IMG/VR virus record: IMGVR_UViG_2537562091_000001
Source: a virus
Lineage: Duplodnaviria; Heunggongvirae; Uroviricota; Caudoviricetes
DNA: 9,517 bases
Strand: one strand, 5' to 3'
The translations under genes and the position numbers were made by a program. The notes under the pieces were generated by a model. The model saw only the letters and a program-made list of their open reading frames with translations, was not told the DNA's origin and made no database searches. Below are positions 1-6,105 of the stretch, piece after piece (within the stretch, counting starts at the first letter, position 1; each line of letters starts with the position of its first letter).

Positions 1-206
1 GTCTTCCGTAGCCTGTCATACGCGTAAAACAGCCAGCGCTGGCGCGATTTAGCCCCGACATAGCCCCACTGTTCGTCCATTTCCGCGCAGACGATGACGT
101 CACTGCCCGGCTGTATGCGCGAGGTTACCGACTGCGGCCTGAGTTTTTTAAGTGACGTAAAATCGTGTTGAGGCCAACGCCCATAATGCGGGCTGTTGCC
201 CGGCAT
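1..206 (-). CDS. insB: IS1 InsB, 5' portion only (truncated by the window boundary)
   Basis: Minus-strand frame starting at the ATG at 206-204 reads [49 protein letters not shown]..., the IS1 InsB N-terminus; it overlaps the insA 3' end as in IS1. Confidence 0.8.
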
Positions 207-400
207 CCAACGCCATTCATGGCCATATCAATGATTTTCTGGTGCGTACCGGGTTGAGAAGCGGTGTAAGTGAACTGCAGTTGCCATGTTTTACGGCAGT
301 GAGAGCAGAGATAGCGCTGATGTCCGGCGGTGCTTTTGCCGTTACGCACCACCCCGTCAGTAGCTGAACAGGAGGGACAGCTGATAGAAACAGAAGCCAC
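125..400 (-). CDS. insA: IS1 InsA (transposition inhibitor / N-terminal part of InsAB' transposase), 91 aa
   Basis: ORF translation [39 protein letters not shown]...LKNSGRSR matches IS1 InsA as recalled; it lies inside the IS1 element at the expected distance from the inverted repeat. Confidence 0.93.
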
Positions 401-735
401 TGGAGCACCTCAAAAACACCATCATACACTAAATCAGTAAGTTGGCAGCATCACCGTATTGGGGTAGTAAATGAGCTATACAATCTTAATCATTTGTTAG
501 GTGAGAACTCTTGGTCGCAGATTCAAATACTGAAAATACGTGACAAATTATTATGAGCAAAATGGTGTATGTCACGTATTTTGAATGGTAGGTTAAAAAA
601 TAACACCGACTTTCGTAGGTATTACTAATAATAAAGCAGAGTTTTTAGATAGTATCAATGTGCTTTGTGTATATTGTGGCAAATAATTGAGTTGGGGGTA
701 CAATTGTGATTGCTTTTGCATGAACATTGCGCCTT

Positions 736-752
736 TATGCATAATGAGATAA
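736..752 (+). promoter_or_regulatory. Candidate extended -10 sigma70 promoter (TGcATAAT) upstream of ybcL
   Basis: tatgcataat at 736-745 gives a TGn plus CATAAT extended -10 about 55 bp upstream of the ybcL ATG; a plausible -35 is weak. Sequence inspection only. Confidence 0.25.
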
Positions 753-798
753 AGGAATATCAAATAAAATAACGATAGGTCATAACAAAGAGGTTTTT

Positions 799-1350
799 AT
801 GAAAACACTTATCGTTTCAACTGTATTGGCATTCATAACATTTTCTGCGCAGGCTGCAGCATTTCAGGTCACTAGTAATGAAATAAAAACAGGAGAGCAA
901 CTTACAACGTCTCATGTCTTTTCTGGATTTGGGTGTGAAGGTGGTAATACATCGCCCTCATTAACCTGGTCTGGTGTTCCTGAAGGTACCAAAAGCTTTG
1001 CCGTAACTGTATATGATCCAGATGCACCTACAGGCAGTGGTTGGTGGCATTGGACTGTTGTTAATATTCCAGCAACAGTAACATATTTGCCCGTTGATGC
1101 AGGGAGACGTGATGGAACAAAACTGCCGACTGGTGCTGTTCAAGGCCGAAATGATTTTGGCTATGCTGGGTTTGGTGGCGCATGTCCTCCTAAAGGAGAT
1201 AAACCACATCATTACCAGTTTAAAGTATGGGCTCTAAAAACTGAAAAGATTCCTGTAGATTCTAACTCCAGCGGAGCGTTAGTTGGTTATATGCTTAATG
1301 CTAATAAAATCGCAACCGCTGAGATAACACCAGTTTATGAGATAAAGTAG
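799..1350 (+). CDS. ybcL: Periplasmic PEBP/RKIP-family protein (UPF0098), DLP12 YbcL-like, 183 aa
   Basis: ATG at 799 preceded by aagagg; N-terminal signal peptide MKTLIVSTVLAFITFSAQA/AAFQ; translation matches YbcL as recalled. The gene is AT-rich compared with the lambda-like genes. Confidence 0.88.
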   Translation: MKTLIVSTVLAFITFSAQAAAFQVTSNEIKTGEQLTTSHVFSGFGCEGGNTSPSLTWSGVPEGTKSFAVTVYDPDAPTGSGWWHWTVVNIPATVTYLPVDAGRRDGTKLPTGAVQGRNDFGYAGFGGACPPKGDKPHHYQFKVWALKTEKIPVDSNSSGALVGYMLNANKIATAEITPVYEIK

Positions 1351-1359
1351 GGTGAGAGT

Positions 1360-2157
1360 ATGCTGGCAAGAGGTAAGACTAACTTAAAGATCGAAGAAAT
1401 ACGGATGCATAAACATCATGAGATTCATAGGGTTAAGCCTCTTATGCCAGCTTTGTGTCGTATCCGTCAGGGAAAGAAAGTTATCAATTGGGAGACGCAT
1501 ACTTTAACTGTTGATAATAATCAAATAATATTATTTCCTTGTGGTTATGAATTTTATATTGAGAATTATCCTGAAGCAGGGCTTTATCTTGCAGAAATGC
1601 TTTACTTACCCATTGATTTAATTGAGAGTTTCCAAAAACTTTATACGGTAACTGATCAAATACGTAACAAAACAAGTTTCTTTTTACCTCAGAATCCTGA
1701 GTTAATATATTGTTGGGAGCAACTAAAAACATCTGTTTCCCGAGGCTTCTCAACTAAAATTCAGGAGCACTTAGCAATGGGCGTTCTACTTTCGTTAGGA
1801 GTGAATCATGTTAATCATTTACTTTTATCATATAGTAAACAATCATTGATAAGTCGTTGTTATAACCTGCTGCTATCCGAACCCGGCACAAAATGGACAG
1901 CAAACAAGGTTGCTCGATATCTCTACATTTCTGTTTCTACATTACATCGCCGTCTAGCAAGCGAGGGGGTAAGTTTCCAAAGTATACTGGACGATGTGAG
2001 GTTAAATAATGCGTTGTCTGCTATACAAACGACGGTAAAACCTATAAGCGAGATTGCCAGAGAAAATGGTTATAAGTGTCCTTCTCGTTTTACTGAAAGA
2101 TTTCATAATCGTTTTAATATAACACCAAGAGAGATAAGAAAAGCTTCCAGAGAGTAA
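1360..2157 (+). CDS. ybcM: AraC/XylS-family transcriptional regulator, DLP12 YbcM-like, 265 aa
   Basis: Long ORF with a C-terminal AraC-type helix-turn-helix region ([46 protein letters not shown]...[19 protein letters not shown]); it starts 10 bp after the ybcL stop and is very AT-rich. Confidence 0.85.
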
Positions 2158-2221
2158 AAGTGTTTTAAGAAGGAGCAATTCTATCGATTTTGATTTTGGG
2201 AAATCAACACGGCATAATTAT

Positions 2222-2250
2222 GTCACCGGAGCCTGAACAACTCCGGTGAC
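2222..2250 (+). terminator. Perfect 10-bp inverted repeat (gtcaccggag / ctccggtgac, 9-nt loop) between ybcM and ybcN; possible weak terminator or protein-binding site
   Basis: The stem-loop is seen directly. It lies 65 bp after the ybcM stop, but the downstream T-tract is poor (ttctg), so a terminator role is uncertain. Confidence 0.3.
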
Positions 2251-2371
2251 TTCTGCGCTAAACGGGGACGTTTATGCGCACATACAATCCAAACTCTCTT
2301 CTCCCTTCACAGATGCAGAAATGCACCTGCAATTCTTTGCATCTAGCGTTTGACCTCTGCGGAGGTGAAGC

Positions 2372-2827
2372 GTGAACCTCTCACAAGACGGCATCAAATT
2401 ACATCGCGGCAACTTCACCGCTATCGGTCGGCAGATCCAGCCTTATCTGGAGGAGGGCAAATGCTTTCGCATGGTGCTTAAACCGTGGCGTGAGAAACGC
2501 AGTCTTTCCCAGAATGCACTCAGCCACATGTGGTACAGCGAAATCAGTGAATACCTCATCAGCAGGGGTAAAACGTTCGCCACTCCAGCTTGGGTAAAAG
2601 ATGCTCTCAAACACACATATCTCGGTTATGAAACCAAAGACCTGGTTGATGTCGTAACCGGTGATATCACCACTATCCAGTCGTTACGCCATACCTCCGA
2701 CCTTGATACCGGAGAGATGTATGTCTTCCTGTGTAAGGTTGAAGCCTGGGCGATGAATATTGGCTGCCACCTGACTATTCCGCAGAGCTGCGAGTTCCAG
2801 CTGCTGCGTGATAAGCAGGAGGCGTAA
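2372..2827 (+). CDS. ybcN: Phage nin-region protein YbcN (DNA base-flipping protein family), 151 aa, GTG start
   Basis: GTG at 2372 preceded by ggagg at 2361-2365; translation [21 protein letters not shown]... matches DLP12 YbcN as recalled; it sits at the start of the nin-like block. Confidence 0.85.
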
Positions 2828-2997
2828 TGGCTACACCGCTTATTCGTGTCATGAACGGACACATCTACAAAGTACCAAATCGTCGTAAGCGTAAGCCTGA
2901 GCTGAAACCATCCGAAATACCAACACTGCTCGGATATACCGCCAGCCTGGTTGATAAAAAATGGTTGCGACTGGCAGCTAGGAGGAATCATGGCTGA
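2827..2997 (+). CDS. ninE: NinE-family protein, 56 aa
   Basis: Short [59 protein letters not shown]; its start overlaps the ybcN stop (TAATG) and its end overlaps the ybcO start. This is the expected position of ninE in DLP12; it is absent from the ORF track because it is under 60 aa. Confidence 0.75.
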   Translation: MATPLIRVMNGHIYKVPNRRKRKPELKPSEIPTLLGYTASLVDKKWLRLAARRNHG

Positions 2998-3280
2998 TTT
3001 GAGAAAAGCAGCGCGTGGTCGGGAATGCCAGGTAAGAATCCCTGGCGTATGTAATGGCAATCCTGAAACGTCTGTACTGGCACATATCCGGCTGGCTGGA
3101 TTGTGCGGTACCGGTATCAAACCGCCAGACCTGATTGCCACCATTGCATGTTCTGCCTGTCACGACGAGATCGACCGTCGCACGCATTTTGTTGACGCTG
3201 GATATGCAAAAGAATGCGCGCTGGAAGGTATGGCGAGAACGCAGGTTATCTGGCTGAAAGAGGGGGTAATTAAGGCGTGA
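2990..3280 (+). CDS. ybcO: Cys-rich DUF1364-type putative nuclease YbcO, 96 aa
   Basis: ATG at 2990 preceded by a strong AGGAGG at 2980-2985; translation [23 protein letters not shown]...CSACHDE...; the track ORF from 2951 is an upstream TTG extension. Confidence 0.85.
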
Positions 3281-3639
3281 ATACCTACAATATCACATTA
3301 CCCTGGCCGCCGAGCAATAATCGCTATTACCGCCATAATCGCGGGCGCACGCACATCAGCGCAGAGGGGCAGGCATACCGCGAAAACGTCGCCCGAATCA
3401 TTAAAAACGCAATGCTGGATATCGGCCTGGCTATGCCTGTGAAAATCCGCATTGAGTGCCACATGCCGGATCGCCGTCGCCGTGACCTGGATAATCTGCA
3501 AAAAGCCGCTTTTGACGCACTCACTAAAGCAGGTTTCTGGCTGGATGATGCTCAGGTCGTTGATTACCGCGTTGTGAAGATGCCTGTTACCAAAGGTGGG
3601 AGGCTGGAACTGACCATCACCGAAATGGGGAATGAATGA
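3277..3639 (+). CDS. rusA: RusA Holliday-junction resolvase (cryptic prophage endonuclease), 120 aa, GTG start
   Basis: Translation [24 protein letters not shown]... contains the catalytic acidic residues D70, D72 and D91 ([10 protein letters not shown]...WLDDAQ); the start overlaps the ybcO stop (GTGA). Confidence 0.92.
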
Positions 3640-3861: not shown

Positions 3862-4245
3862 ATGCGTGATATTCAGATGGTTCTTGAGCGTTGGGGAGCG
3901 TGGGCGGCTAATAATCATGAAGATGTGACCTGGTCGTCCATTGCCGCCGGTTTTAAGGGATTAATTACTTCAAAAGTAAAATCTCGCCCGCAATGTTGTG
4001 ACGATGACGCGATGATCATTTGCGGGTGCATGGCCCGTCTGAAAAAGAACAACAGCGATTTGCACGATTTATTAGTAGATTATTATGTAGTCGGTATGAC
4101 ATTCATGTCACTGGCAGGTAAGCATTGCTGCTCTGATGGTTATATCGGGAAAAGGTTACAGAAGGCTGAGGGCATAATTGAAGGGATGTTAATGGCATTA
4201 GATATCCGGTTAGAGATGGATATCGTTGTTAATAACTCTAATTAA
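3862..4245 (+). CDS. quuD: Late-gene antiterminator Q (phage 21/82-type), DLP12 QuuD, 127 aa
   Basis: ATG at 3862 preceded by ggag at 3851-3854; translation [24 protein letters not shown]... matches QuuD as recalled; the track start at 3847 is a TTG extension. It is the last gene of the nin-like block, as Q is in lambdoid phages. Confidence 0.88.
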
Positions 4246-4261
4246 TATGCCAATTGTTTAC

Positions 4262-4297
4262 TAAAAATTATTAAAAATGGGGCGTTGAGACGCCCCC
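4262..4297 (-). terminator. Rho-independent terminator on the minus strand (stem ggggcgt/acgcccc with tgag loop at 4279-4296, then a U-rich tract from 4278 to 4262)
   Basis: Minus-strand RNA would read GGGGGCGUCUCAACGCCCC followed by AUUUUUAAUAAUUUUU, a textbook intrinsic terminator. It lies about 140 bp downstream of the nmpC stop and at the predicted 3' end of the IpeX-like RNA. Confidence 0.7.
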
Positions 4298-4434
4298 AAA
4301 AATAAAGGGTAATATATAACAGAAGGTTTATATAGTTAGAAGCAAGGTTGTGCTTCTAAAGGAAGTGGCTTGAGGGAGCCACTTATATGTTGGGGAGGCA
4401 AAGCCTCCCGCAACATATCTTTTTCGTAATCAGA
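4268..4434 (-). ncRNA. ipeX: Candidate IpeX-like small RNA in the nmpC 3' region (multi-hairpin RNA ending at the terminator above); boundaries approximate
   Basis: Four consecutive stem-loops on one strand (4385-4418, 4363-4384, 4338-4357, 4279-4297) between the nmpC stop and the terminator U-tract. IpeX is a roughly 167-nt sRNA described at this position in DLP12; ends are not mapped here. Confidence 0.4.
4385..4426 (+). terminator. Long imperfect hairpin (atatgttggggaggc-aaa-gcctcccgcaacatat) followed by cttttt; candidate plus-strand terminator just before nmpC in antisense
   Basis: About 15-bp stem with a single bulge, followed by a T5 run on the plus strand. It could terminate rightward transcription leaving quuD, or it could simply be the 5' stem of the IpeX-like RNA. 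Confidence 0.35.
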
Positions 4435-5517
4435 TTAGAACTGATACACCAGACCTACAGCGACGATGTCGTCGGTATCAATACCAGCTGTTTTGGTAAA
4501 CTTACTATCGTCAATTAAGTTGATTTTGTAATCAACAAAAGTGGACATGTTTTTATTAAAGTAGTAAGTAGCACCGACATCGACATACTTGACTAAGTCT
4601 CGGTCACCATGAACACCAAGGTCTTTACCTTTTGACTGAAGGTAAGCAACAGATGGTCGCAGACCGAAGTCAAACTGATATTGTGCTACTGCTTCAAAGT
4701 TTTGTGCTTTGTTTGCAATATGGTTATTACCAAAAACGGTCATATTCTGAGTTTCAGAATATGTGGTAGCCAGATAGATATTGTTCGCATCATATTTCAG
4801 GCCTGCAGCCCATACTTCCGCATTTTTGCCGGAGGCATTGAATTTGCTCTTACCATAGGCGACCTGACCGTCAGTGCGATCTGATTTAGCATAGGTTGCA
4901 CCCACGCCGAATCCTTCATACTCATAAGTAGTGGAGAAACCGAAACCATCACCATTGGCTTCAGTTACGTCAGTGCGGTCATTTTTACCCTGATACTGAG
5001 CAGCAAAGTTCAGGCCATCGACCAGACCAAAGAAGTCGTTGTTACGATAGGTTGCAACACCAGTGGTGCGACCAGTCATGAACACATCTGTTTGGGTCCA
5101 GGTATCGCCACCGAATTCTGGCAGAACGTCAGTCCACGCACCGATGTCGTATGCTACACCGTAGTTACGGCCGTAATCGATTGAGCCGTAGTCACCGAAT
5201 TTCAGGCCTGCAAATGCAAGACGGGTTTTGTCTTTGGAGGAACCTTGAGATTCAGCGCGGTTGCCTTTGAATTCATATTCCCACTGACCGAAACCAGTCA
5301 GTTGATCGTTGATTTGGGTTTCACCTTTGAAGCCAAGACGGGCATAAGTAGTATCACCATCATCTGCATCGTTAGAGGAAAAGTAGTGCTTGGCATTAAC
5401 TTTCCCGTACAGATCCAGCTTGTTACTGTCTTTATTATAAATTTCAGCTGCCTGAGCAGACATCGCCATCAGTACTGATGCAGCTACAGCAGAAATTGCC
5501 ACTGTTAATTTTTTCAT
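4435..5517 (-). CDS. nmpC: Outer-membrane general porin of the OmpC/PhoE/NmpC family, intact, 360 aa
   Basis: Signal peptide [29 protein letters not shown]; porin-like beta-barrel sequence ending in the C-terminal VGLVYQF with terminal Phe; uninterrupted frame on the strand opposite to the surrounding phage genes. Confidence 0.9.
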
Positions 5518-6105
5518 CGTGAGCCCTTTTTTTTGAACTATTATTAAAAAATGATGTCACTGCGCGATAAATATTCATCTAATCAATGTGATTATTTCAA
5601 GATGTAAGTTTTAGTTTCTCATTTAATTTGTGAAGTAGATCTCTATTTTTATCTGAACTTTTTCTATCGAAACCTATTTATGGCTCTTATTTGAACAAAA
5701 ATAAACCTATTAGCTAATTTATATTAATGGCTGTTATTTATGGGGGTTCTATAATTCGGTGGTTTAATTTAAATCAACTAAAAATAACGCCGGAAATTAT
5801 TTATTGGTTATTTGTTGAGGTTTTCTTATATATTTGTGGTGGTGTTTTGAACACTCGGTAGCATTCTCATAAATATCATTCAGTGGTTTACGTACGTAAA
5901 AAATTGGTTATGCTGTTAAGAGTGGTTACTTCGTCACACAGCTTAAACCCGCCGTCGAGCTGGTTTTTCCATTTTTTGAGTCTCGATATTAGCTGATAAC
6001 TCAATACCTGAGTTATTCACTGACTCCGAGTCTGTTACGTTTCTGCTTTTTTGCGATACGTTGTATTCCCTCAATTTACACCCGCTTTGTCTGCGAGGTG
6101 GGGTT

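Follow-up and report, generated by a model that had tools for sequence, protein, structure and literature searches.

The question raised by this locus is what is encoded in the 189 bp that separate two convergent genes of a prophage. The window (the whole stretch of DNA analysed, 9,517 nucleotides, IMG/VR record IMGVR_UViG_2537562091_000001) is an Escherichia coli lambdoid prophage of DLP12 type. The stop of quuD is at 4245, and the stop codon of the prophage porin gene is at 4435-4437 on the minus strand; the spacer between them spans 4246-4434. This spacer very probably encodes IpeX, the porin-regulating small RNA (sRNA) of DLP12/PA-2-type lambdoid prophages, as the 3' untranslated region of nmpC/lc. 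The two genes and the RNA are located as follows.

3862 to 4245, plus strand: quuD, a Q-type antiterminator gene, convergent with the porin gene; it adjoins the RNA and is not part of IpeX.
4435 to 5517, minus strand: nmpC/lc-type prophage porin gene, intact, 360 aa; IpeX is the 3' end of its transcript.
4271 to 4437, minus strand: the 167-nt small RNA IpeX, with the ends given by the K-12 annotation; it forms the 3' untranslated end of the prophage porin mRNA.

The RefSeq label 'ompC: porin OmpC' is often given to the nmpC/lc-type prophage porin and is misleading. IpeX of the cryptic prophage DLP12 and of phage PA-2 was reportedly described by Castillo-Keller, Vuong and Misra in 2006 (J Bacteriol 188:576). 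It is a 167-nt RNA that is made from the phage porin promoter within the porin transcript and then processed (PMC12197685). Its targets are ompC and ompF, and it lowers OmpC/OmpF (PMC3333887; PMC7177473) by a repression that, according to the literature, acts after transcription. It has been described as Hfq-independent (PMC8313858).

The spacer aligns with the quuD-nmpC spacer of the K-12 MG1655 DLP12 prophage at 188 of 189 positions, and with the region downstream of lc in phage PA-2 (J02580.1) at 99.5% identity. In K-12, ipeX is placed at 574365-574531, reverse strand, 167 nt, with the remark 'manually added to GFF' (PMC8313858 supplement 1, 2021). These coordinates were transferred to the window through the alignment with an offset of 570094. 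The mapped RNA begins at the first base of the porin stop codon and ends 8 nt past the terminator stem, and 166 of its 167 bases are the same as in K-12. The sole difference in the spacer is in the loop of hairpin 1, where the window has A at 4402 and K-12 has C. The initial annotation had proposed, from the sequence, an IpeX-like minus-strand RNA of about 170 nt that runs from the nmpC stop toward quuD and ends near 4265-4275. The mapped ipeX bears this out in strand, length and 3' end (4271), and the alignment to K-12 ipeX that it had suggested as a check carries the claim further: by sequence identity the spacer RNA is ipeX itself, an RNA already described and not a new one.

Position after the nmpC/lc stop, strand and terminator also agree with those of IpeX in K-12 DLP12 and PA-2. 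The same order, with the porin stop followed by IpeX on the same strand, is found in PA-2, 434B, Lambda_4C10 and 80 viral contigs. The RefSeq feature table of K-12 has no ipeX entry. A search of Rfam gave no match at gathering score in the whole window, and the matches at E of 10 or less within 4100-4600 were at chance level (E of at least 1.5). An Rfam model for IpeX appears to be absent.

The window differs from K-12 in the state of the porin gene. Insertion elements disrupt this type of porin gene in K-12 (IS5) and in REL606 (IS1). In K-12 the IS5 lies 58 bp upstream of the porin stop codon, whereas the gene is intact in the window, and IpeX can come from the porin promoter. The K-12 element (NC_000913.3, 574591-575785; L001:6592-7786) carries insH2 in the nmpC orientation. 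IpeX is reported to be expressed in K-12 despite the IS5 (PMC8313858), and its K-12 transcript may arise from read-through out of this element.

The minimum free energy (MFE) fold of the spacer on the minus strand contains five local hairpins, namely hairpins 1 to 4 and the terminator stem-loop. Four stem-loops had been counted in the initial annotation, and the one absent from that count is probably the A/U-only hairpin 4. The features of the fold are listed from the porin stop codon toward quuD.

4385 to 4418, minus strand: hairpin 1 (IpeX nt 20-53), 15 pairs with one bulge.
4363 to 4384, minus strand: hairpin 2 (IpeX nt 54-75), loop CCCUCA, from the MFE fold.
4336 to 4359, minus strand: hairpin 3 (IpeX nt 79-102), from the MFE fold.
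4313 to 4334, minus strand: hairpin 4 (IpeX nt 104-125), a weak A/U-only stem with loop ACCUUCUG and a mean unpaired probability of 0.89.
4279 to 4296, minus strand: intrinsic terminator stem-loop, 7 pairs, of which 6 are G-C, loop CUCA.
4263 to 4278, minus strand: U-rich tail AUUUUUAAUAAUUUUU, within which the annotated IpeX ends, at 4271.

The minus strand of the spacer folds with -65.1 kcal/mol (z -7.1), and none of 200 shuffled sequences folds equally well. The annotated 167-nt RNA folds with -62.9 kcal/mol (z -9.0). Folding of the minus-strand RNA, which had been named as a check, is thus far better than that of shuffled sequence. The plus strand of the spacer folds about equally well (-66.9 kcal/mol, z -5.9) because the hairpins are palindromic, and the strand is therefore not decided by folding alone. 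It is decided by the terminator. The hairpin GGGGCGU-CUCA-ACGCCCC is followed exactly by AUUUUUAAUAAUUUUU, so that on the minus strand a G+C-rich stem stands directly before a U run (AUUUUUAA). On the plus strand the sequence after the same hairpin reads CAAAAAUAAAGGG and contains no U run. The RNA is on the minus strand. The rho-independent terminator that had been read on this strand is confirmed as a GC-rich stem with a U tail, and it coincides with the annotated 3' end of ipeX. A generic terminator scan called 3 sites in 2.8 kb against 2.5 expected, a count not above chance; the case for the terminator at 4279-4296 is made by its quality, its position and its agreement with the 3' end annotated for ipeX. 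Transcription from the porin promoter would pass the stop codon and the four hairpins and halt at this terminator, and the 167-nt tail would act within the full mRNA or after processing.

The spacer may have an additional role as a two-way insulator between the convergent genes quuD and nmpC/lc, which would not be exclusive of IpeX. The minus-strand terminator would stop porin transcription before quuD, and hairpin 1 with its T run would stop quuD transcription on the plus strand. The T5 run that had been noticed after the nmpC-proximal hairpin is present on the plus strand, as CTTTTTCG at 4419-4426. The hairpin before it (4385-4418) is strong on this strand, with -22.7 kcal/mol and z -4.0, and is followed by CUUUUUCG. 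Read-through on the plus strand is also not required, since the late promoter lies outside the spacer (see below). Against this role, five U are few for an intrinsic terminator, 4 of the 20 variants retain only T4 or T3, and a consensus terminator scan did not call hairpin 1 with its T5 run. No single hairpin serves both directions: the one at 4279-4296 has its U run on the minus strand only, and hairpin 1 has its T5 run on the plus strand only. In live lambdoid phages, N normally modifies early transcription so that terminators of this kind are ignored. Of the two-way termination suggested initially, a separate plus-strand candidate therefore stands, whereas the terminator hairpin itself is unidirectional and the T run is not conserved. 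Hairpin 1 with its T5 run is a candidate weak terminator for transcription leaving quuD, and a possible role would be to keep early transcription from entering the porin gene in the antisense direction. The insulator as a whole is a tentative reading, and we consider it rather unlikely.

The ipeX sequence was found in 2510 of the 5426 complete E. coli genomes (~46%), with a median of one copy and without annotation in all of them, and in 36 phage records. Its copies in these genomes and records are always behind the prophage porin gene. The spacer copies of the 80 viral contigs are all near-identical. In E. albertii, similarity to the window stops directly after the U tail. The chromosomal porins of Salmonella, Citrobacter, Enterobacter, Serratia and other genera (80 loci), which have up to 81% protein identity, showed no ipeX-like tail. 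E. coli A36 (NZ_CP028739.1; L166 2495-3765) carries a decayed prophage that has lost ybcN through quuD. What it keeps, next to ybcM and without quuD, is the porin gene together with an IpeX spacer of 90% identity. Judged by these linkages, IpeX travels with the porin gene rather than with quuD.

Two further copies are interrupted. In IMG/VR contig 2563366891_000011 (L105:3084-3800), an insert of ~710 bp separates the porin stop codon from hairpin 1 of IpeX. The 169-aa protein encoded by this insert resembles an IS200-type transposase, and the insert would part IpeX from the porin promoter. In E. coli JB2 (L167 2501-2564), the spacer is reduced to the quuD-proximal 64 bp, and an IS5-like element replaces the remaining spacer and most of the porin gene.

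Twenty distinct copies with 87-100% identity were aligned. The terminator stem is invariant in 20 of 20, and its loop alone varies. Hairpin 2 has two apical pairs broken in 7-8 of the 20 variants, and in hairpin 3, 95% of the cells are paired. One double-sided change was found in 51 pairs, which is no better than in shuffled alignments of these very similar copies. It is a compensatory change of the apical pair of hairpin 1, from C-G to U-A, in E. albertii. Single changes that keep a wobble pair are balanced between the plus and minus strands in this alignment. Covariation is uninformative on both structure and strand because the copies are too similar.

The complementarity of IpeX to its reported targets was evaluated with ViennaRNA on four leaders, those of K-12 ompC, ompF and ompA and that of the prophage porin itself. 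One region of IpeX stands out.

4299 to 4333, minus strand: candidate target-pairing region (IpeX nt 105-139), with 27 predicted pairs to ompC mRNA at -32 to -2.

This extended duplex of 27 pairs has an energy of -26.7 kcal/mol. Its core is formed by IpeX nt 110-124 (AACCUUCUGUUAUAU, window 4314-4328) and ompC -19 to -5 (AUAUAACAGAGGGUU), with 15 consecutive pairs, of which 14 are Watson-Crick and one is G-U, and it covers the ompC Shine-Dalgarno sequence GAGGG. A run of this length was matched by 9 of 1000 dinucleotide shuffles of IpeX. The predicted ompF duplex joins IpeX nt 117-132 to ompF -13 to +2 and is weaker than that with ompC; its run length was not significant against dinucleotide shuffles. 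Net energies were calculated as duplex energy plus the opening cost of both RNAs, with IpeX held fixed. The controls were 275 leaders taken from predicted long-ORF starts of other enterobacteria, which are not curated E. coli leaders. The results are listed by leader.

ompC leader: net -12.33 kcal/mol, reached by 0 of 275 controls.
ompF leader: net -7.89 kcal/mol, reached by 3 of 275 controls; borderline.
ompA leader (non-target): net -3.79 kcal/mol, reached by 76 of 275 controls.
Porin's own leader (non-target): net -3.21 kcal/mol, reached by 95 of 275 controls.
Control leaders (n = 275): mean net -2.35 kcal/mol, best -8.37 kcal/mol.

IpeX has, by this measure, an accessible stretch complementary to the Shine-Dalgarno region of ompC beyond chance, and the result for ompF is borderline. 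IpeX was also compared with 47 porin leaders from other enterobacterial genera; those that pair best with it are of OmpC type and OmpF type, and the same two segments of IpeX are involved. Of 5371 E. coli genomes, 5339 carry the ompC site with an identity of 99% or more. The predicted unpaired probability is 0.89 for the loop of hairpin 4 and 0.68 for the linker before the terminator. IpeX nt 128-142 have been scored as accessible in vivo and as a 'likely-functional region' (PMC8313858 supplement 1), and the candidate pairing region at nt 105-139 overlaps them.

Other results were negative. Hybridisation energy alone, in 44-nt windows and without opening costs, was no better than for shuffles, and whole-molecule duplex folding was discarded after it gave long meaningless duplexes. 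Conservation in the pairing region does not significantly exceed that in the remainder of IpeX (7 of 35 against 36 of 129 variable columns, p 0.39). The Hfq CLASH supplements contain no ipeX entry and no IpeX chimeras. According to a review, there is no base-pairing between IpeX and the mRNAs of ompC and ompF.

The complementarity of IpeX to the ompC ribosome-binding site is strong and apparently previously unreported. It comes directly from the analysis, as do the identity, position, strand logic, fold, terminator and distribution; the base-pairing mechanism is what we infer. Direct pairing between IpeX and ompC has about an even chance of being real. The fuller proposal, that IpeX is an ordinary antisense RNA whose nt 105-139 would act on ompC -32 to -2 and whose nt 117-132 would act on the ompF start region, we place slightly below even, and if true it contradicts the statement of the review. 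The weakly structured nt 105-139, from the loop of hairpin 4 to the linker before the terminator, would pair with the ribosome-binding region of ompC and less strongly with that of ompF. Translation would thereby be blocked in the manner of MicC and MicF.

The plus strand of the spacer also resembles the ompC leader itself (AAATAAAGGGTAATATATAACAGAAGGTTTATA compared with ompC AAATAAAGG-CATATAACAGAGGGTTAATA), with an alignment score reached by 1 of 2000 shuffles. This suggests that IpeX arose from a captured and inverted porin 5' region that was placed behind the phage porin gene.

The spacer could instead be a passive porin 3' untranslated region, with stabilising hairpins and a terminator and no action on other genes. 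Such a 3' end would equally show the hairpins, the terminator and the linkage to the porin gene, and the uninformative covariation does not speak against it. IpeX was also discovered as a multicopy suppressor (PMC3617542), so an effect at natural dosage is less certain. We nevertheless hold a passive 3' end to be improbable: several papers report the repression of OmpC/OmpF by IpeX, and the complementarity to the ompC ribosome-binding region exceeds that of all 275 control leaders.

The location of the spacer directly downstream of a Q-type gene, together with a plus-strand hairpin and T run, raises the further reading of a Q-dependent late promoter with the Q loading site and first late terminator, as in lambda and Stx phages. 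A promoter-like site was found on neither strand of the spacer, and in A36 the spacer is present without quuD. A homologue of the Stx-phage region is located elsewhere, beyond the porin gene. Window positions 5887-5970 on the plus strand share 76-90% similarity with the sequence that directly follows Q in many Stx phages. The annotation of Stx phage 06-3462 maps its pR' late promoter to ~5887-5914 and its rho-independent terminator to ~5948-5970; the terminator-like hairpin of the window at ~5948-5970 folds no better than shuffles (z 0.47). By this homology the late promoter of the prophage is between the porin and holin genes, at ~5887-5970, and a late promoter within the spacer was rejected as very improbable. 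Since the pR' homologue lies beyond the porin gene, the porin gene and IpeX would therefore be an inserted cassette between Q and its promoter.

QuuD (127 aa) has a weak match to the solved phage 21 Q (6P18, 6JNX), with an E value of 7.6e-07 over residues 8-87, and is by this match a distant relative of phage 21 Q. Yet its presumed promoter region is similar to that of Stx phages of the 933W type.

A plus-strand ORF starting from 4388 in hairpin 1 runs antisense through the porin gene and is annotated as 'ORF1' in PA-2 (L003:180-389) and as a hypothetical protein in 434B (L004:3142-4550). It is probably not real because its length is not conserved (~43 codons here, 69 in PA-2). That the spacer encodes a small protein, as old or automatic ORFs across it in PA-2, 434B and strain JB2 would have it, or that its hairpins are a dispersed REP-like palindromic repeat, is scarcely credible and was rejected, given this ORF length, the lack of any ORF of at least 50 aa listed at 4388 in the window, and a median of one copy per genome, always at the quuD-porin locus.

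IpeX, as the preferred reading of the spacer, can be compared with several known systems. The nearest parallels to its predicted action are MicC and MicF, which have the same ompC and ompF targets and pair with their ribosome-binding regions; the predicted pairing of IpeX likewise covers the Shine-Dalgarno region. MicC and MicF each have a separate gene and promoter and are Hfq-dependent, whereas IpeX is a prophage mRNA tail described as Hfq-independent, and it has no sequence relationship to MicC or MicF. Like CpxQ, SroC and UhpU, IpeX shares the terminator of its parent mRNA and is released from the 3' end of a coding transcript (PMC12197685). Unlike IpeX, these three RNAs are core-genome and Hfq-binding. 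DicF of Qin and InvR of Salmonella SPI-1 are, like IpeX, horizontally acquired RNAs that regulate core-genome genes, and InvR also targets a porin. DicF and InvR have their own promoters, and their sequences are unrelated to IpeX. In kind, IpeX is a 3'-UTR-derived prophage sRNA acting on core-genome porin genes.

The reading of the raw sequence recovered a real, published sRNA that automated annotation had missed. The ipeX gene is unmarked in RefSeq and Rfam although nearly half of the complete E. coli genomes carry it. If the predicted ompC pairing is true, a regulator that has been regarded for twenty years as having a 'novel mechanism' free of base-pairing becomes a conventional antisense RNA, and its targets become predictable. 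For the prophage, IpeX would be the means by which its porin gene displaces host OmpC/OmpF: as IpeX lowers the host porins, the phage porin would replace them, with altered permeability and altered display of phage receptors. OmpC is the receptor of PA-2, and the displacement of OmpC would therefore also be a form of superinfection exclusion.
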